Below, one piece after another: positions 1-42,490 of a stretch of 64,000 nt of DNA. Source of the stretch: Scenedesmus sp. PABB004. Lineage: Eukaryota. The first letter of the stretch is position 1. Every line of letters begins with the position of its first letter. Where the stretch lies: positions 1,116,001-1,180,000 of the forward strand of contig JABVCE010000007.1 of assembly GCA_014905635.1 (NCBI GenBank), given 5' to 3'. Below the pieces are notes generated by a model, which worked only from the letters and a program-made list of their open reading frames with translations, was not told where the DNA came from and did not search any database. The translations under genes were made by a program, and so were the position numbers.

Positions 1-3098
<3,098 letters not shown>

Positions 3099-4176: not shown

Positions 4177-4968
4177 ATGGCTTATCGCGCCTACGGGGCT
4201 GACTTCGACATGAGGTGCGCGGGCGCGGGCGCTCCGCAATCGCCGCAGCCTGCGGCGCGCAGCCGGCGCCGCATGGCGGCGCCGCGCGCCCGAGCAGCGG
4301 CGCGCCCGACCCCACCCGGCGGCGGCGGCGCCGGCGAGCCCCGGGCGGTCGGGGGAGCGTCGCGCAGCCTGCAGCTGCGACAGTCGTCAGCAGCACGGCA
4401 GACGCGCGGCCGCGCCGCGCTGCCCGGCGCTCGCTGCCCGCGCCAGCCAGCCGTGGCCACAGCTGTGCCGCCGCGGCCCGGCCGCCACTCACGCACGCGC
4501 CCACGCGCCGCCCGCCGCGCCGCAGGTGCACGTCCGACAGCGACCCGTCCGAGGCGCCGAGCGTGGACAGCGACGACTCGAGCGCCGCGCCGCCGCGGCG
4601 GCACCGCGCGAGCCAGAAGAACGCGCGCGCGCGCAGCGTCAAGGTGCGCACGCTCAACCGCTGGACCACGGAGGAGCACGACAAGCTCGCGTACCTCGTG
4701 GACAAGTGGGGCAGCGAGAAGAACTGGGCCAAGGTGGGGGGAGGGGGGGGGCGCTCCGCGCGACCGCAGCTGCGCAGCCCCGGCGCGCGCGGGGCGCGGC
4801 GCCGACAGCTGCGCCGCCGTCGCCGCCGCCGCAGGTCGCGGAGGAGATGCCCGGCCGCACGGGCAAGCAGTGCCGCGAGCGCTGGCTCAACCACATGAAG
4901 CCCGGCATCATCAAGTGAGCGCGGCGGCACGCGCGTGGCGGCGCGCGCGCGCGCGCGCGCCCGCGGCA

Positions 4969-27101: not shown

Positions 27102-28120
27102 TCACTTGTCCGCGAGCAGGTCGTACGCGAACTTGAGCGTCGTGCCGACCAGGCCAAACAGGCCCAAGTAGCTCAGCGCTGCGACGCGGCAGCCGGCGGC
27201 GGCGCGGCGCGGCGGCGGCATCAGCGGGCGCGCGCTCGGGCCAGCCAGACCGCCCCAGGGCCGTGCGCCGCGCGCCGCGCCGTGCACCCGTGAGCTTGTT
27301 GACGCGCTTGGCGGGGTCGCCGGTCGCGTAGCCCTCGACGTAGCCGATCCGGCCCAGCAAATACGCCGCGCCCAGCGTGGCGGAGGTCAGCGGGTACTGA
27401 GGGCAGGCGTGGGGGGCGCGGCGGGCGGGGGGGAGGGGGGGGGGGGGGGGGGGGGGGGCGTGAGGCGGCAGGGCGGGGCGAGGGGCAGGGCAAGAGGACG
27501 CGCGGCGCGGGGCCGGTGCGGCGCTGCGGCGGTGGCGCGGCGCGGCGGCGGTTGCGTTGGCACCTGAAGCCCGGAGATGGTGAGCAGGGTGAGGAAGATG
27601 GGCTGGCTCTCCAGGCTGTTCTGGTGGGCGCGCTGGACGCAGTTGAACTCGGTTGCGTGCGCGTGCCCCGGCTCGGCGTAGAGCGCGGGATACTGGCGGC
27701 GGCGCGGCGCGCGGGCGGCGGGGGCGGGGCGGGGCGGGGGCGCGCGCGTGGACCTGGCGCCGCGGCGGCCGGCGCGGAGAGTGCTCGGGCGGGGAGCGTG
27801 CGGCAGCGCACCTCGACCTTGAACTGCTTGCGCGCCTTGACCACCTTGAACGCCATGTAGATGTGGTGCCTGCACGCGCCGGGGAGGCGCGCGGGCGCGG
27901 GCGGCGCTGAGCGGCGGCGCCGCTGAGCAGTGCAGCGTCGACAGCATCGCAGTCTGAGCGCGCACGGCTGTCGCGCACGGCGGTCGCCGCGGCGCGCGGT
28001 GGCACGCGGGCGGAGCCGCACAGCGCAGCAGCGGCCGCGGCGCGCCACGCACACGAAGTAGCTCGCCGCGGCGGTGCCGACGACGTAGCCGAAGCCGGGC
28101 TTGAGGTTGAGCGACGACAT
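27102..28120 (-). CDS. MAPEG family protein (microsomal glutathione S-transferase 3-like)
   Basis: GFGYVVGTA, MAFKVVKARKQFKVEYPALYA, FNCVQRAHQNSLESQP and GRIGYVEGYATGDPAKR. Confidence 0.94.
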
Positions 28121-28584
28121 GCTGCGAGCGCGAGCAGCAGCGGCGGGCGCGGCGGCGGCGGCGGCGGCGGCGCTCGCTGCCAGCGCGCGCGGCGCCGGCC
28201 CGGGCGTTGCAGCGCCGACACCACGCCAGCACCCAGCGGGCGAGCGCAGGCGCCGCGATCGCGCGCCACGCGCCTGCTGCTGATGCGGTGACCACGCTGT
28301 CGTGCGTGCGGTCGGTGCGGTGCCTGGGCGGGGTCAGGCGAGGGTTTGGGAGTCTGCACGTGACGTGGGCGGTGGCGGGGCCGCGTGCGCGCGTCGCAGG
28401 CCGCGCAGCAGCACCGCGACCGTCTCGCTGCCCAAGCGCGAGCGGCCGATCGATGCCGGCGCGACGCCAGCGCGGTGCAGCACGCGTCAGTCCGTCACGT
28501 CATGGCGCGCCAGCGCGCAGCGGCTGCCTAGCGCCGCGCCGGCGCAATCCGACCCGCGCGCAGCACGCGCGGGCAGGCCCGCCC

Positions 28585-31500
28585 ATGCCGCCCGCGGGCG
28601 TGGCCGTCAACCTGGAGGAGCGTCTCGAAGAGGCGCGGACGAGCCACAAGCTCAACTATGGGTGCGGGTCAACGCCGCCGCCCGCGCCGGCCGCGCTCGC
28701 GTGAAACGCTGCGCCGCCAGTCGCCGGCGGCGCGCCCGGGCTGCCGGCCAGGTGGGCCACCGCGCTGCACGCGCCGCCGACGCCCGCGCCGCGCGCGCCA
28801 CGCGCCGCGCGCAGCTACGCGAGCCTGCCGTCGCTGCCGCCGGGCTTCGTGGAGGCCGTCAAGCGCGCCTGCCCCCACCTGGCCGAGCTGGAGCTGTCCA
28901 GGTGACCGCCGCGGGCCGCGGCGGCGAGCTGGCCAGCGCGACCCCGCAAGCGCGGCTGGCGGCCGTCGACGCGCGGCGCCCGCCGCCGCGCGCGCGCGCC
29001 CGCGCGCCGCGCCGCCCTCCGCGCGCGTGGCGCAGCAACACCCTCACCGACCTGCCGGACGACGTGGTGGAGCTGGCGGGGCTGCGCACGCTGCGGCTCA
29101 AGTACAACGCGCTGCGCCGCCTCCCGAGCGCGGTCACGCGCCTGCCCGGCCTCGCGGTGCTGGAGCTCAGCGGCAACCAGATCGCCCGCCTCGACAGCAG
29201 CGTGTCGCGGGTACGCCGCGCGCGGCGCGGCCGGCAGAGAGCAGGCGCGGGCGCGGCGGCCGCCGGCGCCGGCGCCGACGGCGGCCGCCGCCGCCGCCGC
29301 CGGCCGCGCAGCTGACGAGCCTGCGGGAGCTGGACGTGTCCGGCAACCTGCTGACGGAGCTGCCGCAGTCGCTGGCGAGCCTGCCGAAGCTGGAGGTGCG
29401 GCGGCGGGCGCGCCGGCGGCCGGCGGCGCGCGGTGGCGCCGGCCGCCGCGGCGCCAGGCCAGAGCCGCGGCCCCAGCGGCGGCAGCGGCCGCACACGCGG
29501 CAGGGCTCAGCGCACCCTCGGCGCAGGTGCTGCGGCTGGAGAACAACCGCCTGGAGGCGCTGCCCGACAACCTCGGCAAGGCGCCCGCGCTCGCCAAGCT
29601 CGACGTGTCGACCAACTGCCTGCGCACGCTGCCCGCGAGCCTCGGCCGGCTGCGGCGCATCCAGCGCATCGACGCCGCCAACAACAGCCTGGTGCGCGGC
29701 GCGCCGCCTGGCGGCCAGGCCGCACCTCCGCGCGCCGCCCGCCGCGCGCCGCGCGTCGAGCCCCCGCTGCGTGCCGCGCGCCGCGGCGCCCGCAGGCGCG
29801 CGTGCCGCCGAGCATGGGGCACCTGAAGACGCTGAAGGAGCTCAACCTGCGCTACAACGCCCTGGACGACCGCTACCGCGCCAAGGCGGACGAGGGGCTC
29901 AGCAGGCGCGCCGCACGGCGCCCGGCGCGGCGCGGGCTGGGCGGGGCCTCCTGCGGGCGCAGCCACGCCGGCGCCGCCCGCGCTCGCGCGACAGCCCGAC
30001 CGGGTGTGCGCACAGCGCCGCCGCGCCCCGCCGCCGCCGCGCGCAGGCTGCTCGCGTTCCTGCGCGAGGAGGAGGAGCGGGAGCGGCTCGAGGAGATGGA
30101 GCGCCTGCGGCCGGTCGGCACCGCGGTGGGGCCCTACATGGAGTTTCGGTGCGCGCCCCCGCCCCGGGCGGCGGGCGCGCCGGCGCGCCGCGCGTGGCCG
30201 CCGGCGGCGCAGCCGCCCAGGCCCACGCGCCGCCGTCGCCGCCGCCGCGGCTGCCAGGTGCAAGGCCGAGCCGGCGCAGACGGTGCAGACCGATTATGGC
30301 GAGTTTTCGGTCGACAACCGGCTCTGGGTGCGCACCGGCTACAGCCTCACCCAGGTGCGGCCGGCGGCGGCGGCGCCGCGGCGAGCGGGCCGGCAACGGG
30401 GCCAGCCAGTTGCAGCTGGCAGGCGCAGGCCGGCCGGCGCACGCGCCCACTGCGCCCGCGCCGCGCCCCTTCTGCAGGTGAACAACGTCGCGTACGTCTT
30501 TGGCGGGCAGCCCGTCAAGGGCGGCGCCGTGTCGAACGAGCTCTTCTGGATGACGAGCGAGCGCATGGAGTGGCACGCGCAGCCGACGCGCGGCGACCGC
30601 CCCGCGGGGCGCTACGGCCACGTCGCGGTGTACGACCCGGACCACCACCAGCTCGTGGTCTTTGGCGGCCGGTGCGCGCGGCGCGGCGCGGTGCAGGCCG
30701 GGGCGGCGCGACATGGGGTGCCTTTGCACGGGCCCACCGCTGCGCGGCACCCCCCGCCCCGCGCCGGAGAGCAACGCGCCGCCCCGCGCCGCGCAGCAAC
30801 GCGGACCGGAAGCGCCTCGCCGACGTGGCGGCGCTGGACCTGGACTCCTTCACCTGGCGCCGCCCGGCCGTGTGCGGCGCGCCGCCGAGCGCGCGCGCGA
30901 GGGCGCGGCGGCGCTGTACCACGCGGGGCGCATGCTGGTCTTTGGTGCGCGGCGGGCCGGGCCGGGCCGCACTGCGCGGCCGCGCGGCGCCCCCTGGGTT
31001 TGACCCCGCCGCCGCCGCCGCAGGGGGCCACGCCACGGGTGGCCGCACCAACGACCTGCTGCTCCTGGAACTCTCGGGCTGGGCCTGGAGCCAGCCGAGC
31101 ACGACCGGCGCCGCGCCCAGCCCGCGCAGCGCGGCGGCCATCACGGGTGCGGCGGCACCGGGGTCGCGGCGGGCGCCACCACTGGCCGCAGGGCGGGCGG
31201 CGCGAGTCGGCGCAGCAGCCGCGGTCACCTCACCTCACCTCACCCGCCCGCCCGCTCGTATTCGCGCCCGCCCGCTCGCCTTCCACCCGCAGTCGCCAAC
31301 GGGCACTACCTGGCCATCCACGGCGGGCGCAACAACTTTGTGCTGGACGACATGCACTTGCTCGATCTCCTCACACGCACATGGATCGACGTAAGCTGGG
31401 CACAGCGGGCCAGCCACCGCGCGCGGCGGCGGGAGCGCGGCGGCGGCGGAGGGGCGCGCGGCGCGCCCACGCAGACGACGGCGCCGCGTCGCAGGTCGCG

Positions 31501-34500
31501 CCGCGCGGCAGCCTGCCGCCGCCGCGGCACGGGCACGCGCTGCACGTGCACGGCGACGCGCTGTACCTGTTTGGCGGCGTCGATGAGCTCGGCGCGCCGA
31601 GCGTGGCGCTGTTCCGCGCGCCGCTGTCGCGGAGCGCGATGGACGCGGCGGGCGCGCGCGCGCGCGGCGGGCGGCGCCGGCGGCGGCGACGCGGGTGTGT
31701 GGGCCGCCGCGGCGCGGCGGCGCCGGCGCGCCGGCAGAGCGCCGCGCGCGCGGCGTCGACGCGGCCGCCGCACCACCCCCGCCTCGCGCGCCCGCAGGCG
31801 ACGGCGGCGGCGCGGTGGAGGTCGAGTGGGCCGAGCTGGACGCTGAGCTGCCGTTCAACCGCGCGCGCGGCGCGGCGATGGCGGGCGGGTCGCTGCGCGT
31901 CTACCAGCTCGGGTCCGCCGCGCTCGGCCGCGCCGCGAACGACGACGACGCCGAGCGCGGTGCGTCGGCGTCGGCGCGCGCTGCTCGCCGCCGGGCCGGG
32001 CCGAGCCGAGCCGGGCTGAGCGCGGCACTCGTGCCCCCGCAGGCCTGGCGTTCTGGGATGTGTTCAAGACGGCGCGGCTCGACGCGCTCAAGCCCAGGCC
32101 CTCGGCGGCGCCCGGCGACGGCGAGCGCAAGCCCGGCGGCGCGGCACGGCCGCAGGCGAGCTCCACCAAGGCGAGCCGCGTGCAGCACGCGACGCACAGC
32201 GCGGCCAAGATGCCGCCGGCCTTCACCTCCAACAGCGCCAAGGAGGCGCGCCTGCTCGCGTACGTGGCAGACTGGCAGCGCGTCTTCGGGGAGCTCTACC
32301 CCCACCGGTGGGTGGGTGGGTCGATGCGGCGCGCCGGCGCGTGCGCGGCGGCGGCGGGCGCGCCCGTCCGTGTTGTCGCGTCGCTCCGCCGCCGCGGGCA
32401 GCCCGGAGCGAGAGAGGCTCGAACGGCGGCGAGCGGTCACGCGCGCGCCTCTGCCGCCTCCGCGCGCCGCAGGCGGCCGATGCCGCTCGCGCCGCTGAAC
32501 GAGTGCGGCGTGCCCAAGTTCCTCTGCTCCGGGCTGCGCCCGAGCCTGCCGCCATACCCGCAGCTCCACAGCCTCGACGGCGCGGCGCGGTTTGTGGCCG
32601 AGCTCCTGACCTACGAGCCCCTCGCCGACCCGCTGCACTCGCCGGCGCACCTGCCGAGCCCGCACAGCGTGCTCGCGTGGCAGGCGGCCGACGCGTTTGA
32701 CGCGGCGGGCGTGCTCGCGTCGCTGCTGCTCGGCGCGGGGTTCAACGCGTACGCCGTCATGGGCTATGCGCCGCACGCGATCACGCTCAACGACCAGACC
32801 GACGCCGAGTGCCCCGCGCTGCAGGAGCCCGGCGCCGGCGAGGCGGGCGCCGCGGGCGTGGGCGGCTCGGCGGCGGGGCAGGCGGCGCAGCGGCCGCCGG
32901 CGGGCAGCGGCGGCGGCGGCAGCGGCAGCGGCGCCGGCGGCGGCAGCGGCAGCGGCAGCGGCAGCGGCGCCGGCAGCGGCAGCGGCAGCGGCAGCGGCAG
33001 CGGCAGCGGCAGCGGCAGCGGCAGCGGCAGCGGCAGCGGCAGCGGCAGCGGCAGCGGCAGCGGCAGCGGCAGCGGCAGCGGCAGCGGCAGCGGCAGCGGC
33101 AGCGGCAGCGGCAGCGGCAGCGGCAGCGGCAGCGGCAGCGGCGGCGGCGGCGGCAGCGGCAGCGGCAGCGGCAGCAGCAGCAGCAGCAAGGCCGGTGCCA
33201 GCGGCGGCAGCGCAGCCGGCACAGCCAGCGGCAGCAGGCCCGGCGGCGGCGAGGGCGGCGCAGCGGCGCCGGCGCGTGGTGACGAGCCCGGCAAGCGCAG
33301 CAAGTACCAGGTGCGGCCACGGCCGCAGCTGCTCAGCAAGTTCCTGCTGGAGCACGGCGGCGACGGCACGCTCGCGAGCAGCGAGGAGCCCGCGGCCAGC
33401 GCCGCGCAGGTGGGCGCGGGGCAGCGGGGCGGCGGTGCGCCGCGCGCGCGCGTCTGTGCGCCCAGCCCGAAACCGCGCTCACCACGCGTGCCGGCCACCA
33501 CACCGCAGTCGCCGGAGCCAGGCGCCCCAGCCGCCGAGGGTGAGCAGGAGGAGGCCGACGACGAGGCGGGCGGCGCCGGCGGCCCCGTGGCGACGCAGGA
33601 GCAGGAGCAGCCGCCGCCGCGGCGGCAGCGGGACAACCGCGTGCACGCGTGGGTGCTGGTGCTGCCAGGGCGGCGAGAGGTGCGCGTGCGGCGCTGCCGA
33701 GCAGGCACACCCGGCCTGCGCGCCGCGTGCATGCGCGCAGCCAACCAGGGCCGCCGCCGCCGCCGGCGCAGGTTGCCGAGCCACTGTTCATTGAGCCCGC
33801 CACCGGGCGGCGCGTGAGCCCGGCCTCGCCGGCCTGCCCCTACACCGGCGTGGAGCTGGTGTGGAACGCCTGCAACGCCTGGGTCTGCATGCAGGTCGGC
33901 GGCGGGCGCGGCGCGCCGCGGCGCGTGCTGCGCGCGCAGCTCCTGCCAGCCCTTCGTCCGGCCCTGCTGACGGCGGCTGCGCGGCACCGCAGGCGCCGGA
34001 GCCGCACTCGGACTCGCGCGCCGCGCCGGCGTCGATCAGCTGGGACCTGGCCAACCCTGCGCTGTGGGAGGCGGTGCTGGACGAGCGGCAGACGCGGTGC
34101 GCACGCTGCGGCGCGTGCCAGCTGAGCTGACCGCGCCGCGCCCACGCCTCGCCGCCGCGCCTGCCACCGCCGGTGCGGGCACACGCGCGCGCCGCAGGCC
34201 GCCGCGCAGCGAGCCGTCGCCCGACGCGGGACGGGGCGGCGCCGCCGGCGCGCTGCCTGCAGGCATGACCTCGCGCGCGGGCCTGGGCAGCACGCTCAAC
34301 GCAATGGGCAGCATGCTGACAGGGCGCCCGCTCACGCCGAGCTCGCTCAACCTGCCGCGCGCGGCCGCGCCCGCGTCGGCGGGCGGCGCCGGCGCCGGGC
34401 CGCCGCCCGGCACACCCGGGCTCGGCGGCGTGCTCAATCGCGTGGCGAGCCGGCCGGTGCCGCAGCTCGGCGGCGGCGTGGCAAGTGAGTCTGGGGCGCC

Positions 34501-37056
34501 AGACGCAGGGCCGGGCCGGGGCGCTCAGCGTCTGCCGGCGCCGCGCTCAGCGTCTGCCGGCGCCGCAGGCAGCACGGGCTTTGGCAGCGGCGGCGGCGGC
34601 GGGACGGGCACGCCGCGCGGCACCGACAGCGGCCGCGGCGGCGTGGAGGGCTCGACTGGCGGCACGCTGGCGGCCGGCCCGCCCAGCAAGGCCGCGAGGT
34701 CTGAGTATGCGCGCTCCGAGTATGCGCGCAGCGAGCTGGGCGACGGCAGCGCCGCCGGTGCGGGGCGCGGCGGTGGGGGCCCGGTGCGCGCGGCCGACGG
34801 GCAGCAGCGCGCCGGCCGAGCAGGCCCGCCCACCGCGCGCGCCCCGCACGCCGTGCAGGCGGCGCCGCCGCGGACGAGGCGGGCCCCGAGGCCGACCTGC
34901 TGCCCGACCTGCCGCCGAGCTGGGTGCCGAAGCTCACCATCCCACGCGACGTGCTCGACATGCGCTGCCCCCGGGTGCGGCTGCGGTGCAGCCAAGGCGC
35001 AAGGCCCAGGCCCGCAGTCGCCGCGCTGCCCGGCAGGGGCCCGCGGCGCACGGCACACGTCGGCGCCACCGCCCCGCTGACGCCGCCGCCGCGCCGCCAG
35101 GGCTCACGCACCACGCTGTACCGGCGCTGCAGCCACGAGATCTTTGCTGGCTACGGCGAGTGCGCGCGCTGGGACGGCCTGGTGGAGCGCATCACGCTGT
35201 ACGCCGACGACGCGCGGCACGCTGTCGCCGAGGTGTGTGCGCGCGGGCGGGCCCGCGGCGGCGGCGCGTCCCGGGCTGCGCGCGCGTGCAACAGCCTCGA
35301 GGCGTTTGGTTGGCCCACCGCCGCGCGCCCACGCAGGTGCGCGAGCTCTTTGCGCGGCGCAAGGACAAGCTGCGCGAGCGGCGCACCTACCCGCCCCAGG
35401 ACGCGGTGGAGGTGCGCCGCGGCGCTCGTACCCGCGGCCCGGGGGCTGGCCCCCGCCGGCCGCTCACACGCAGCCGCCGCCGCCGCCGCTTTTGTGCGCG
35501 CGCCAGGAGTTTTTCCTGCCGGGCAGCCTGTTTGCGGTGAAGCACCTGCACGCCGTGCGGGGGCGGCGGCGCGCGATCGACTTTTACGCCCCCGCCCGCC
35601 TCGACGGCCTCGCGTGCCGCGAGGAGGTGCTGGGCGTGAAGATGACCGAGGCCTTTGTCGGCCGCGACGACCGACTCACCTACCGCAGCGCGACGTACGG
35701 CGCGCCCGGCGCGCCCGGGGGAGCGCCGCCGGCGGCCGGCGCCGAGCCCGGCGCCGGCGCTGGCGCGGGCGCGGGCGCGGGCGTGGGGCCGGGCGGCGAG
35801 CGCGCGCTGCCAGTGGTGAAGGTCACCGAGAAGTTTGACCGCGACCCCGGCGCGCCCGCGGACGCCGACGTCGCCAAGCGCACCTTCCACGTGTTGGCGG
35901 GGCGCACCGTCGTGTGCCACCACCTCGGCGACGGCCGGCTCACCGCGGGCAGCCTCGTGTTCACGCGCGACGGCCAGGCGCAGGCGGTGCAGGTGCGCGC
36001 GCGCGCGTTGCGCGTTTGTGCCGCCGCGCCCGCCCCGCCGAGACCACCGCCGGCTCACGCGCGCCTGGCCGCAGGTCGACCCGCTCGCGCCCAAGCCCTG
36101 CGCGCGCGCGCTGCTGGAGACGTACCGGTCGCTGCAGGCGGCGGAGCGCGCGGTGCTGCAGGCGGTGCGGGACAGCGAGTGGGAGGGGCGCGAGATTGCG
36201 CGCACGCGCGGCAGCCAGGAGCAGACCATCGCGCTGGAGGTCCCCTACTACGACGCGCCGCGCGTGCAGGTGGGGTGTGGGCGCGCGGCGCCGGGTCGTC
36301 TGCCGTCTTGCCCGCCGGGAGCCGCCGCGGGCCACGCGCGCGAGGCAGAGCGCGCGCCGCGTCCCCCGCCGCCTCCCGGTGCGCAGGCCGACGACAGCGA
36401 CGACGAGCCGCCGGACAGCGAGGGCGCCGGGTTTGACTACCTGCTGCCCTTCCTGCCGCCGGGTGAGGCCGCCGGCGCTCTGAGCGCACCCGGGCGGCGC
36501 AGCACGCCCGGGTGTGTGGGTGCTGCGCGCGCAGCCGGCCACCACGCGGGCTGGTCTCACCGCGCGCTGCCGCCGCTCGCCGGCCGCCAGGCACGGCGGT
36601 CAGCGCGGCGGCAGGCGGCGGCGGCAGCCTCACGCACGAGCAGGCGCTCGCGGTGCGCGAGCGCTGCCTGCGGGCGCTCAAGGACCGGCTCATCGAGCGT
36701 GCCAACATCATCCAGGTGCGCGGCGCAGCAGGGGCGCGGCTGGAGCGCAGCCCAGCCAGCCAGCACCCACCCCACCTGTGCGCCGCGCGCCCCGCGCGCG
36801 CCCGCGGCAGGCGCGCCTGGACGAGGAGCAGGCGGCGCTCGAGCGGCGGCAGGCCGCGTTTGCGCGCGACCGCGGCGCGCTGAGCGCGGAGGAGGAGGCG
36901 GAGCACGAGCGCGGCGCGGACGAGGCGGCCTTCCGGCTGGCCATCCTGGCGCGGCGGCTCGCGCGGCACGAGGAGGCGGCGCTGGCCAAGTACCACGCGC
37001 TCGACCGCCGCCTGCGCGGCGACGCGCGGCTCGCGGTGCTGCTCGCGCCGCTGTGA
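28585..37056 (+). CDS. DRC7: Dynein regulatory complex subunit 7 (DRC7/FAP50/CCDC135 family) with N-terminal LRR and Kelch regions
   Basis: LRR exons (LRTLRLKYNALRRLP, LDVSGNLLTELP) and Kelch exons (YVFGG, RYGHVAV, LVVFGG, LYLFGG) splice in frame into DRC7 motifs: LNECGVPKFLC, LPSPHSVL, ASLLLGAGFNAYAVMGYA, VHAWVLVLPGRRE, FIEPATG, WDGLVER, DYLLPFL and LIERANIIQARL. There is one apparent frameshift at about 30890. Confidence 0.85.
32903..33187 (+). repeat. (GGCAGC)n coding repeat giving a long Gly-Ser linker within DRC7
   Basis: Hexamer repeat in frame with the DRC7 exon, translating as GSGSGS... Confidence 0.9.
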
Positions 37057-37243
37057 GCGGCTCCCGCGGGTCACACGGCCGGCGGTGCCGCGCGCGACGC
37101 GCACAGGCAACAACAAGGCCCCGACACCGCGTGCTGCGGCCAGGCGACAAGCTCTAGAGACCTCCCTCCCCCGCGCAACAGCCGCCGCGCCAGCCCTCAC
37201 ACAGCTCGGCCAGGTCGCCGCCCAGGTCGCACCCCGACAGCGG

Positions 37244-38447
37244 CTATGGCCCGCCCGCCGCCTCACCGCCCGCGCCCCGCATGGCGCGGCGCCGCCGGCT
37301 CCTGCCGCCGCTCGCGGCCTCGGGCGCCTGCGGCGCGCCCGCCGGCTGTGCCACCGGCGCAGCCGGCGCAGCCAGGGGCGCCGCCGGCGCCGGCTGCACG
37401 GCCAGTGGGGCCGTGAACGGGGAGCTGCGCTTGGCAAACGCGCCGGGGCCCAGGAGCTCCAGGATGAGCGGCTTCAGCGGGCCGTGGTTGCGGTTGTTGG
37501 AGCAGATGTGGAGCGATTGCTTGTAGGGGTTTTTGTTCCGCGCCTGCGCGCCGTGGCGGCGGTTGCGGCGTCAGCGGCGGCGCCAGCGCGGTGCCGCGAG
37601 CGCGCACGAGGCGGTGCCGCACCTTGCTGGTGGCGTGCTCAAACTCACTCGCGCTGGCGTACTCCAGGCCCGTCGGCAGCCCCATGACACGGTCCAGCTC
37701 CAGCACGCGCACCTGGCGGGGGCGTGCGAGCAGCGGTGGGGTTGGGCTTGTGAGAGTTGCCGGCCTGGCTGAAGGGGGCCCGCGCGCGCCCAGGCGCAAG
37801 GCGCGCGCCGCCAGCCGCCGCACCGCGCGGGAGAGACTGAACGGCTTCCCGTCGTCGGGGGCCGAGTCGAGCACGGCCACCGCGCGCGCCGGCTTCCCCG
37901 CCTGCGCGCCGTCCGGCCAGACGCCGCACTCCACAAACAGCCAGTAGCGGGCGCGGCTTGCGTACGACGCGTCAACGCCCTTCAGCATCGTCTCTGCTGC
38001 TTCGCGCTGCGCCTTCGAGGCGGTTGGGCTGGCAGCCGCCAGCATCTGCTGGGCGCAGCCCTCCACAGAGGTGTCCACCCCAGCAAAGCGGCCGGGCACC
38101 ACCGCCAGCGCGCCGCCCGGCGTGCCCTGGCCCGCGCCTGGCAGCGTGCCCGGCCGGCTCGCCGGGCCAGCCGCCGCGGCGGACCAGCTCCGGCGCGTCG
38201 CCTGGACCTGGAGGGCGGGGTGGCGCGTGGCAGGGACGGTGTCGGCAAGCGGCCGCGCAGCCGGCGGCCGCAGCGCGCGCCGCGCTGCGCCGCTGCTGCG
38301 CCGCCGCCGTGCCTGCTCGCTGCGCGCCGGCCCCCAGCCAGCAAACCGTGCGTGCGCGTAGGCCAGCGAGGCCTGCCTCGCGAGGCGGGGGCTGCTGGCG
38401 GGCGCCGCCGCCGCCGCCAGGCCCGCGCGGGCGCAGCGCAGCAGCAT
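37244..38447 (-). CDS. Unknown protein with a SAND-like domain and a transit-peptide-like N-terminus
   Basis: Removing introns 37713-37823 and 37544-37622 gives ...YWLFVECGVW...YASASEFEHATSKARNKNPYKQSLHICSNNRNHGPLKPLILELL...; stop TAG at 37244-37246. Confidence 0.65.
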
Positions 38448-38663
38448 GGTGCTCCCGGCGTGCGTGGCGTGGCGCGTGCGCGGTCGTGCGGCGTGAGTGT
38501 GAGATGGTGGCGGGGCGCGCCTCGCGCTGGGCAGCGCCGCGGTTGAGCGCGGGCGCCGTCATTTTGGCGGGGCGCGGCCAGACGGCCACGCCGGCCACGA
38601 GGCCGCCTGGTTGCGCTCGAGGCACCGCCACAGACCTGACGCGTGGGCCTCGCGCTCGCATCC

Positions 38664-39885
38664 ATGGCTTCCCTGCGAGCGGCCAGCTGCTGGCAGCGCG
38701 GGGCAGCGGCGCTGGCGCGCCCCACCGCCGCTCCCTCCCGCCTGGCGCCAGGCCGCCTCGCAGCTCCCAGAGACAGCCTCACGCCTTCCAGCGGGGTGCG
38801 GCGCGGCGGCAGCACGCATGCGGCCGGTGGCTGGGCGGCGAGCAGCGCTGCCGCGCGCGTGCCGGCGGCGCACGGCCGGCCGTGCGCCGCCAGGCCTGGC
38901 CGGCCTGCTTCGGCAGCCTCTTACCCACCTGCCGCCTCTGTCACCTGCCGTGACGCCGCAGGCGGGGCTGCACTGTGCCCAGCAGGCGCGCGCCGCCCGC
39001 TGCGCGCGCGTGTCGCCCGGCGTGGTTGGCGGCGGCGCGCTCGGCGGCGACGTCGAGCCGTCGGGGCGAGCTCCCTCCGCCGTGATGGCCTACAGCATCA
39101 TGGGCGCCCTCACCGAGGCCATCAGCTCTGCCCCGGCGCCCGCGCAGCACAGCCCTGAGTTCACGGCGCGCGTGGAGGCAACCGCTGCGCTCATGCAGGA
39201 GCTGCAGGACGAGGACGGCGACTACAGGCAGGTGGCGTGGCTGGTCGTTCAGTGCGGCGACTGGCAGCTCGATGTCAGAGGCACAGGCGCCGGCCGGCCC
39301 GCGCGCGCGCTGCTGCGCGTGAGCGGCTCGCCCGGGTGCTGGTGGGAGCCGCCGCGCAACATGATGGCGCTGCCGCTTGGCGACGACGGCCTGCCCTGGC
39401 CGCGCGGCGGCGCGTGGCCCAGCGGCCAGCTGCGGCGCAGCGCATTCTGCCCCGTGAGCATCGGCTTCTTCAAGAGCTTGACTAATGCACCTCAGCAGCA
39501 CGCCTGGCAGGCCTGCAAGGTTCTCCACGGGGGCGTGGAACTGGCGAGCTTCAGGGCTTTCCTGGACTACCTGCGCAGCCGCAGCAGCCAGCCGGGCGAC
39601 GACAGCGCGAGCAGCCTCGCGCCGCAGCCGGGCGCCGCCGTGCCCCAGCCGCGCGCTGTCGGCGAGCTGCTGACCGGCGCCCTTGCGGTCCCGCCACCGG
39701 CTGGCGGGCTGCCCGACGGGGCGCCCGGGGCCAGCACACTGCAGTGTGCTGGCCAACAGCTGTCGGCGTGGGTGGCGCTGAGGCGCGGGCTGGCGGCACT
39801 GAGGCGCGGGCTGGCGGTGCACAGCGGCGCGCTGGTGCTGATGTTCCTGATCGCGCTGGCAGCGGTCAAGCTGCTCGCGCCGTAG
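38664..39885 (+). CDS. Unknown protein paralogous to its left neighbour, with a transit-peptide-like N-terminus and a C-terminal transmembrane segment
   Basis: Exon 1 MASLRAASCWQRGAAALARP... joins through intron 38796-38961 in frame to ...AWLVVQCGDW...GAGRPARA...; the protein ends ALVLMFLIALAAVKLLAP*. Confidence 0.65.
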
Positions 39886-40153: not shown

Positions 40154-40840
40154 TCACATGCGCGTGGCGGGCGAGCCCGGCGCGGCCGCGGGGCCGGGCC
40201 CCGGCGCGTAGCCACGATTCTCCACGCTCTGCCCGCCGCGGTCCTGCGCGCGCGGCGCCGGCAGCGGTCGCGCGGCGCGCGCGCGCGGTCGGCGCCCCCG
40301 CGCGCGGCGCAGCGCCGGCGCTGCTTCAGCTGGCGCGGGCGTGGCGAGCAAGCCGAGCTCTAGTTGCAGTTGCAGGTCGCTCGCGCTGCGCCCGCCTGCG
40401 GCCGCCCACCTTGATGCCAAAGGCCTTGTTCACGCCGGCCTGCAGCGGCTTGGTCGTCGCGGGCGCACCGCCAAGCAGCGCGGGCAGGACGAAGAGCACG
40501 CCAGAGAGGAAGATGCTCGCGACGGCGACAAAGGCCACGATCGAGCCGTCCCGCTCGCGCTCCGTGCGCGGCGCCTCGGGCAGCTGCACCGTGCGCTGCT
40601 TGCCTCCGCGGCGGCCGCCGGCGGGGGCGGCCTTGGCGTTGGCGGCGCGGCCACGGCTGCCCGGCGCGCCTGCGTGGCGCGGCGCGCCGCGTGGCGTGGG
40701 GGCCCGGCCGCTGCCGCCGCCGCCCGCCCGAGCCGCGGCCCACCCTTGAACGCCACCACGCGGAGCGTGGCGCGGCCACCAGGCCTCGGTACGGGCGCCC
40801 GGAGCGCGCAGGGGCGCGAGCAGGCGGCGAGAGCGGTCAT
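40154..40840 (-). CDS. Small putative plastid-targeted single-pass membrane protein
   Basis: Transit-like MTALAACSRPCALRAPVPRPGGRATLRVVAFK, a hydrophobic SIVAFVAVASIFLSGVLFVLPALLG segment, and two GT-AG introns. Confidence 0.6.
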
Positions 40841-41032: not shown

Positions 41033-41898
41033 TCAGTAGCCCGTCGTGCGCACGCCGCGCAGCAGGTTGCGCGTCGGCGGCTTGTGTGGCGCGCGGAAGT
41101 CGTGCCGCGAGTTGGGGCCCCACGCCGCGTGCGCCTCGAGCAGCTCGCGCAGCTTCCCCACGCTGTGCTGCATGGGGTTGAGCTTGCGGTCCCGGAACAT
41201 CGCCTGCACATCGTCGCCGTGCGCCGCGACCAGCCGCTCCACGATCTGCCGCTGGTGGCTCGTGAGCCGCTTCGGCGGCGCCTTGCCGCTCTTGCGCTCC
41301 TGGTTGGTCAGCACGCGCAGCTCTGCGGAGCGGCGCGGCGGCGCGCCGCCTCAGCGCCGCCTCAGCGCCGCCGGCGCGCTGCACCCGCCGCTACGCTCGC
41401 AGCGCCTGCGCGGCGCGGCGCCGCGGCGCGCGCACGCCGCGCCGCCGCCGCCGCCGCCGCCGCCGCACCGTCGTCGTCCGAGTAGGTCCCGCCGTCCTCG
41501 GCCTCGCGCTCCGCCTTGCTCTTGAGCGGCGCGTCGCGCTTGTTGCGGCCGAAGCCCTCGTTGGGGTCGAGCAGGAATCGGTTGGCTGCGTAGTTCTTGC
41601 TCAGCGTCGCCTGCTCGCGCCACTCGACGCTGCGCGCGGCGGGCGGCCAGGCGCGGGCGCCAGGGCGTGGGCGCGGGCGCCAGGGGCGGGGGGGGGGGTG
41701 ACAGGGGGGCGGCGCGGCGCGGCGCGGCGCGCGGGGCGGCAGCAGCGGCGCTCACGCCGCCTGCAGCCGCGCCGGCACCGCCGGGCACTGCTCGGTGACC
41801 TCGAGCGGGACCTGGGCCTTGGTGGTCTTCTTGCGCTTCACCACGCCCACGCGGACCTTGGGCGCGTTGCGCTTGAGCCGGCGCCGGCTGCCGCCCAT
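41033..41898 (-). CDS. NOP16: Ribosome biogenesis protein Nop16-like
   Basis: Basic N-terminus MGGSRRRLKR, WREQATLSKNY...LLDPN and LVAAHGDDVQAMFRDRKLNPMQHSVGKLR, the Nop16 C-terminal signature. Confidence 0.85.
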
Positions 41899-42490
41899 GG
41901 CCGCCGCCGCTGCTGTGCCGCGCCGCCGCGCCGCCGCGCCGCCGGGCGCCTAGCCGCTGCCGCGGGCGCGCTGGGGTCGCGGTCGCCGGGAGCGCCGGTC
42001 ACAGGCGCCCGGCGCGGCTCGGGGGCGCGCGGGCGAGGTTGTGCTCCGAGCGTCGGCGGGCGGGCGCGCTGGGCGCGGCTGCGCGGCGCGTGCGGGCTGC
42101 GGGTGCGTGGCCTGACTGGTGCGGCGTGGTCAGCGCGCGCGCTGCAGGCGGGCGAGGAGCAGCAGGCTGTGTCGCGGCAGCTGCGAGACGAGCGGCGGGC
42201 TGCACGCCGCTGGACCGCCGCCCTGGGCCCCGGCGCGTCACGAACGTGAGAGAGAGCGCCCATCAGCAAGACTTACTCACACACAGCCGGTGCACCCCTC
42301 CAAGTGCTTGCCCCCGCGCCAAGTCCAGCGCGCATGCGTTGGCCGAGCCCGGCCGGGCGGCGCGTGCGGGCGGCGTCGCAGCCGCCCGCACTCCCGCGCC
42401 TCGCGCAGCGCGCACGGGTGGCACGTGCCACCAAAACGCCACCGGCGCGCGCACCGCGCGCGCGCGCGCACGCCCCGCTCGCCGCCGCGC

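Follow-up and report, generated by a model that had tools for sequence, protein, structure and literature searches.

Introduction

The SAND domain is a chromatin- and transcription-associated domain that occurs in many architectures in green algae (PMC10137558). In a preprint, the Chlamydomonas reinhardtii SAND protein SND1B (Cre06.g256850) is placed in chloroplast nucleoids and is reported to co-localise and co-precipitate with HLP1 (bioRxiv 10.1101/2022.05.31.493820); with this precedent, an organellar SAND protein is not new. Two SAND cores, TPxxFE and KDWK, have been described, and the KDWK sequence varies among SAND proteins (PMC4349709).

Membrane attachment of plastid nucleoids has been described for angiosperms, in which PEND, MFP1, and pTAC16 act as anchors that tie a nucleoid or DNA-binding protein to envelope or thylakoid membranes (PMC4154389). 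PEND is a dicot bZIP protein and MFP1 a coiled-coil protein. The PEND anchor is C-terminal. The anchors named in this review are from angiosperms, which makes the attachment of organellar DNA to membranes in chlorophytes a question of interest. In the limited collection of literature that was searched, we found no membrane-anchored algal SAND protein.

Here we report on two divergently oriented genes, referred to as A and B, in a 64,000-nt stretch of Scenedesmus sp. PABB004 contig JABVCE010000007.1 (the window; GC content 74-82%). The original prediction for this locus was a co-regulated pair of SAND-like paralogues, one soluble and one membrane-tethered, that are imported into an organelle and anchor its nucleoids, and it regarded this location as unexpected for SAND proteins; the chloroplast-nucleoid location reported for SND1B weakens that surprise (bioRxiv 10.1101/2022.05.31.493820). 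What is supported now is a probable pair of orphan paralogues, one of which shows a faint trace of SAND. Our preferred reading, which we hold only tentatively, is that the two form a rapidly evolving organellar pair of SAND origin, in which A is soluble and may bind DNA and B is degenerate and anchored in a membrane.

Results and Discussion

Structure of genes A and B

Splice signals define gene A as three minus-strand exons (38447-37824, 37712-37623, and 37543-37244) encoding 337 aa and gene B as two plus-strand exons (38664-38795 and 38962-39885) encoding 351 aa. Both proposed start codons, at 38447 on the minus strand and at 38664 on the plus strand, were confirmed; they are arranged head to head and 216 nt apart, and this divergent region (38448 to 38663) is presumed to represent a shared promoter. 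A weak E2F-like site, one of 21 such matches in the window, is located mid-gap at 38563 (plus strand). All three introns of A and B start with GTGCGG, end with CAG, and are in phase 0, and the core exons of both genes show coding periodicity with a GC3 of approximately 0.9.

Exon 1 of A (37824 to 38447, minus strand; codons 1-208) encodes an acid-poor N-terminus, a Gly/Ala linker, a predicted helix, and the motif WLxVxCGxW...G(K/R)PARA, which is shared with B and is found in A at residues 149-197 (37857 to 38003, minus strand). While codons 1-34 are coding-like, with a GC3 of 0.97 and zero acidic residues, codons 35-80 have an intron-like codon score; due to this score and a C-rich acceptor at 38208, a 105-nt in-frame GC-AG intron (38208 to 38312, minus strand) is a possible additional feature of this exon, removal of which would shorten the presequence and keep the frame. 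Intron 1 (37713 to 37823, minus strand; 111 nt, GTGCGG...CCGCCAG, phase 0) lacks codon periodicity (GC 0.81/0.78/0.78). The 30 codons of exon 2 (37623 to 37712, minus strand) include SASEFEH, which is similar to the SAND TPxxFE core, and intron 2 (37544 to 37622, minus strand; 79 nt, GTGCGG...GCGCAG, phase 0) separates these from exon 3 (37244 to 37543, minus strand), which encodes KNPYKQSLHI, a Pro/Ala tail, and the basic cluster RSRRRR (37303-37286) ahead of the stop codon. As the SAND-like core of A thus spans intron 2, the splice sites and the motif support each other.

Exon 1 of B (38664 to 38795, plus strand; 44 codons) is transit-peptide-like in sequence and has a codon bias that is not coding-like (score of -0.37, with the two other frames at -0.57 and -0.29). 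The ends of the B intron (38796 to 38961, plus strand; 166 nt, GTGCGG...CCGCAG, phase 0) are canonical, and splicing keeps exon 1 in frame with exon 2; an alternative in-frame start, ATG 39085, is found in good context, with G at -3 and +4. Exon 2 (38962 to 39885, plus strand; 307 codons plus stop, GC3 0.90) encodes the B copy of the shared motif at residues 116-168 (39175 to 39333, plus strand), for which a low-confidence model predicted a helix followed by a beta-hairpin. This is followed by a stretch collinear with the SAND-like core of A (39457 to 39573, plus strand; F214 and W226), in which the SAND F-to-W spacing is kept and FE is changed to FK, a resemblance that is not above chance. 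Just ahead of the C-terminal hydrophobic helix that represents the putative tail anchor (39829 to 39876, plus strand), a 21-nt tandem duplication (39774 to 39817, plus strand) gives rise to two copies of a basic amphipathic heptad.

Gene A carries a faint SAND-like pattern that is not detectable in B

Searches of the genome (a 40-Mb assembly of 80 contigs), conducted exon by exon, yielded six matches to SAND (PF01342), five of them over the curated cut-off of 22 bits, as well as three matches to TDBD (PF16135) and two to SAND_ULT1 (PF23292); the A/B locus was absent from all three sets. Neither B exon 2 nor any single A exon showed a PF01342 hit; the core of A is split over three exons, whereas the B domain sits in one exon and is nevertheless absent from the TDBD and SAND_ULT1 matches. 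For more sensitive comparisons, a profile built from five of the genome SAND matches, which also retrieves the solved SAND structures of SP140, Sp100, and GMEB1, was used to collect 113 further proteins, from which 126 domains were cut as a reference set. None of the 113 SAND hits was matched by A or B (best E 0.051).

With the 126-domain profile, spliced A scored 2.6 bits in hmmsearch, a value reached by 5 and 3 per 2000 shuffles and by 5 of 630 ORFs in the window, and hhalign gave a probability of 31% with a pairwise E of 5e-4, a result that none of 150 shuffles equalled. A three-block SAND model placed LFVECGVW, SASEFEH...SLHI, and LILELLGP of A in the correct order; 0 and 1 per 500 shuffles, and one of 405 ORFs from the window, scored as high as its 11.9 bits, while 60 true SAND domains, which are members of the training set, scored at least 31.8 bits (median 84). 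For B, by contrast, all three tests returned noise, i.e., -3.9 bits with the profile (reached by 463 and 526 per 2000 shuffles), 1.7% with hhalign (4 of 150 shuffles), and 1.3 bits with the three-block model (125 and 103 per 500 shuffles as high), even though the best three-block placement in B is collinear with A and retains W at F+12. The proposed SAND likeness is thus weak in A, though ordered and above shuffles, and statistically null in B.

Individual SAND features give a similar picture. As in SAND proteins (PF01342, including volvocine VARL/regA and multi-SAND PHD/SET proteins), A has V-x-C-G, S-x-x-E-F-E, and K-x-x-Y-K-x-S-L in order as well as a basic patch; the net charge of the FE+25 segment is +3 in A and +1 in B, as compared to a SAND median of +3. 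The V-x-C-G strand motif scores 6.9 and 8.8 bits in A and B, respectively. On the other hand, scores of both proteins are far lower than those of SAND domains and their spacers are longer (58 and 72 residues from Cys to Phe in A and B, respectively, versus 26-55 in SAND). In the TPxxFE core, FE is present in 121 of the 126 reference domains; A has SASEFE, with FE kept and P lost, whereas B has SIGFFK, with E lost. W at F+12 is present in 107 of 109 reference domains; A lacks it and has, at the position equivalent to KDWK, KNPYKQSLHI with Y (at F+13) replacing W, while B has W at F+12 without the flanking lysines. AIRE also lacks the KDWK tryptophan, and since the KDWK sequence varies in general, the missing tryptophan lowers membership in the family more than it lowers common ancestry. 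ULT-type SAND domains carry an insertion after the VxCG strand, and an insertion at the same place is suggested for the shared motif by its low-confidence model, a possible likeness to SAND_ULT1 (PF23292). Neither A nor B is assignable to the SAND family. Judged from these sequence patterns, we consider a SAND origin of A evenly balanced, and B may be a SAND protein only via descent from an ancestor in common with A.

These data also bear on the alternative that A and B are true and probably organellar paralogues that have in common a small alpha/beta domain of an orphan fold, with no relationship to SAND, which would serve as a protein-binding adaptor that is soluble in A and tail-anchored in B. 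The only significant A-B similarity is located outside the SAND DNA-binding core; the second alignment that had been proposed, which pairs SASEFEH in A with SIGFFKS in B, did not hold up, with regions after the first motif scoring 24, as did or exceeded 1259 of 5000 shuffles. When A and B were pooled, the SAND match fell to 0.8% in hhalign, and both the noise-level scores of B and the Cys-to-Phe spacers beyond the SAND range fit an orphan fold. This alternative does not account for three SAND-like blocks in A that are correctly ordered and above shuffles, and no other family was matched by A or B in Pfam, NCBIfam, or PHROGs. We regard it as a credible but rather doubtful explanation.

N-terminal regions and the hydrophobic tail of B

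The N-termini of A and B were proposed to be acid-poor, and each does indeed contain a single D/E within its first 50 aa, a composition not equalled by any of the 21 named algal SAND proteins compared. However, an equally acid-poor start is found in 250 of the 460 ATG-started open frames of the window, and 140 of 460 also fit when basic and Ser/Thr criteria are added. Transit-like N-termini hence are weak evidence in DNA with 79% GC, and of the organellar targeting originally claimed, the composition stands but is shared by 30-54% of random ATG-started frames in the window. The targeting argument further depends on the true starts, of which that of A is fairly well supported and that of B is not. 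We take the start of A and its RRSWS motif to look more mitochondrial and the start of B more plastidial. For each of the two proteins, we place organellar import at even or very slightly better than even. The hydrophobic tail proposed for B was confirmed, as residues 328-346 have a mean hydropathy of 2.39 (Kyte-Doolittle, 19 residues), as compared to 1.09 for the best stretch in A, and form a clear hydrophobic helix within the last 25 residues; such a tail anchor, like the acid-poor N-termini, is unlike the 21 named algal SAND proteins, which were compared by their N-termini.

With the N-terminal extensions in question, an alternative is that they are not presequences at all. In this case, A would be a degenerate SAND factor that acts in the nucleus, and B, translated from ATG 39085, would be a tail-anchored protein exposed to the cytosol from either the ER or the outer membrane of an organelle and may be a membrane-held form of the same domain. 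The cluster RSRRRR near the C-terminus of A is NLS-like, B exon 1 lacks coding bias while ATG 39085 is well placed, acid-poor composition is frequent by chance, and SAND proteins mostly function in chromatin or transcription (PMC10137558), all of which are consistent with this alternative. Against it, codons 1-34 of A have a strongly coding-like character and encode no acidic residue, and the B intron has canonical ends and keeps exon 1 in frame. Overall, we consider this explanation unlikely.

Relationship between A and B

Both of the motifs quoted in the original prediction are present in the translations, and the first was found to be similar between A and B above chance, with 18 of 46 residues identical (39%) and an E of 6e-5 in BLASTP. 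An hhalign comparison of A with B gave a probability of 75% (E 2.6e-5), and the Smith-Waterman score of the two cores (72) was reached by 0, 2, and 0 per 10,000 shuffles (global, 10-aa blocks, and 20-aa blocks, respectively). The two proteins match at W, C, G, and P residues, 23 of 28 nt are identical between the WLxVxCGxW codons of A and B, and the motif is located at similar depth behind similar N-termini in both proteins. The full-length A-B score of 90 was reached by 3 of 3000 global but by 284 of 3000 local shuffles.

At the genome scale, the A motif retrieved B at E 0.045 as the third of four matches, behind an unrelated glycoside-hydrolase-like locus (E 0.011), and the B motif retrieved only itself and not A. 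Unrelated loci scored 79 and 70 against the A core, i.e., on either side of the 72 of B; these loci are the top scorers across all six frames of 40 Mb, as opposed to B, which lies directly next to A, and it is this adjacency that makes the A-B match meaningful. Among 1242 decoys, the only one that reached 72 with the A core was a preselected unrelated hit, and none did so with the B core. Based on these sequence comparisons, A and B are quite probably paralogous.

The improbable alternative that A and B are unrelated orphan neighbours, with the shared stretch and the SAND-like words due to chance in GC-biased protein, draws on the bracketing scores of unrelated loci, on the weak genome-wide E and failed reverse search, on intron positions that are not common to A and B, and on the expectation that a similarity of about 1e-4 per pair would arise in about one of the order of 10,000 neighbour pairs, but it has to contend with the six-frame, 40-Mb origin of those loci, with the near absence of decoys that reach the score of B, and with matches that fall on W, C, G, and P and extend to the DNA level.

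Paralogue searches found no third family member in this genome. Two hits, L016 (G000:C5:225342) and L018 (an antisense frame), were rejected as chance hits rather than paralogues. The product of L016 looks secreted and has Cys-rich repeats ahead of a further domain, which we take to be glycoside-hydrolase-like.

Homologue and structure searches

Searches for relatives elsewhere were uniformly negative within the collections covered. Among near-length proteins in a set of 5.8 billion proteins, residues 40-215 of B matched 0 of 1269 candidates and A, read through intron 1, matched 0 of 4091 candidates; the read-through A query also gave 0 hits among 1.84 billion representatives. No match to B or A was found among ESM Atlas features, no homologue of either in metagenome contigs, viral contigs, or prokaryote genomes, and no relative in the PDB by sequence; exact look-up of single-exon versions of B returned 0 of 3. 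Searches outside the genome used A without spliced junctions, which lowered their sensitivity, and since the eukaryotic sets are also thin, the blank results point to fast evolution or a coverage gap rather than to absence of relatives.

Without homologues, a confident fold prediction was not obtained; models had a mean pLDDT of 36.0 for the B core alone and 53.6 for the shared motif predicted from two sequences. Fold searches with these low-pLDDT models gave best Z scores of 4.4 (rmsd 5.8, 72 aligned) and 3.6 (rmsd 3.8, 67 aligned), and Foldseek matches had E values of 0.58 or worse, with many HU-like; no SAND was among the fold matches listed, none of which is interpretable at this pLDDT. 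A PDB hit (E 0.0014; 0.042 for the best stretch) suggested the D-serine dehydratase C-terminal domain (PF14031) as a candidate, which was ruled out as the copy of this domain in the genome scored at chance against A and B (1443 and 1865 per 3000 shuffles) and as the A/B locus was absent from the PF14031 genome search. The genome copy itself is located at L023 (G000:C5:932963-933280; PF14031 E 1e-15).

A tentative model for the A/B pair

The reading that we prefer, a SAND-derived organellar pair, would start with an old inverted duplication that gave rise to lineage-restricted, fast-evolving paralogues around the 216-nt divergent promoter region. Their common domain would most likely be a degenerate SAND domain with a long insertion between the first two strands, and both proteins would be imported into an organelle through N-terminal presequences. 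A, which would be soluble, may bind organellar DNA non-specifically via the basic SEFEH...KARNKNPYK patch in a manner similar to SND1B, while B would have lost most of this patch and, anchored in a membrane through the helix at its C-terminus, would serve as a scaffold or a weak tether for DNA. This reading is favored by a shared motif beyond shuffles, the ordered blocks and +3 charge of A, the W at F+12 in B, and the SND1B precedent; it is weakened by the low SAND scores of A, the noise-level scores of B, the long Cys-to-Phe spacers, the lack of coding-like codon bias in B exon 1, the alternative start at 39085, the RSRRRR cluster, the commonness of acid-poor starts, and the occurrence of other, unrelated divergent gene pairs in the window (at about 28.1/28.6 kb and 3.1/4.2 kb).

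Two known systems resemble parts of this model. SND1B is a chlorophyte organellar protein with a SAND-type domain, which is the role proposed for A; it differs in that its SAND domain can be recognised and that it is annotated as a predicted histone-lysine methyltransferase, whereas A and B have no Pfam match (bioRxiv 10.1101/2022.05.31.493820). By analogy with PEND, MFP1, and pTAC16, the layout of B (presequence, domain, linker, and hydrophobic tail) could work in the same way, and the predicted helix of B corresponds to the C-terminal transmembrane anchor of PEND. No sequence relation to the three angiosperm proteins was seen, however; B shows neither a bZIP nor any other Pfam family, and its SAND-like patch is weaker than that of A.

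Functional roles are correspondingly graded. A nucleoid role of A seems somewhat unlikely, and cooperation between A and B very doubtful. It is just as doubtful that the two form a two-part tether, in which a co-expressed DNA-binding A and tail-anchored B would pair via the hairpin that they have in common, thereby holding organellar DNA at a membrane; in a variant of this same proposal, the copies would serve different organelles, with A in the mitochondrion and B in the chloroplast. If a tether were true, a single SAND domain would fill the role that PEND or MFP1 has in land plants. If the preferred reading is true, a tail-anchored protein of SAND origin would be a candidate chlorophyte anchor and, with SND1B as precedent, could point to a small family.

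Neighboring genes and other SAND-related loci

The A/B pair is flanked by DRC7 (dynein regulatory complex subunit 7) and, beyond one small gene, Nop16. DRC7 (34000-37057, plus strand; Pfam DRC7_C E 2e-22, MORN_DRC7 E 1e-21), a flagellar gene that looks intact in this alga, ends 187 nt from the A stop codon, tail to tail. The small gene (40360-40836, minus strand) has a plastid-like N-terminus and one hydrophobic helix, with no Pfam match in the piece that was scanned, and the Nop16 ribosome biogenesis gene (41033-41899, minus strand) was identified with a Pfam E of 6e-16. Elsewhere in the window, 27600-29700 contains two divergent, unrelated genes approximately 465 nt apart on the minus and plus strands, which presumably encode a MAPEG/microsomal GST-like protein and a leucine-rich-repeat protein, respectively, and a plus-strand gene at 4178-4920, which we take to be MYB-repeat-like, is divergent from a minus-strand gene that starts near 3091.

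Among the other SAND-related loci in the genome, the SAND domain at L008 (G000:C35:975748) shows 73% identity to a Tetradesmus obliquus relative; near relatives of this kind, together with intron-rich genes, are indicative of a Sphaeropleales-like green alga. Two near-identical SAND-encoding stretches, L006 and L007 (G000:C35:980429 and 1012353), are located 32 kb apart and are probably copies of one part of the PHD-type gene with multiple SAND domains at L008, due to either a recent duplication or an assembly artefact. Finally, a SAND/TDBD-like motif at L012 (G000:C35:1126219-1126320) is located upstream of a DNA-glycosylase-like sequence, which we take to resemble the DEMETER/ROS1 type and which may be part of the same gene.
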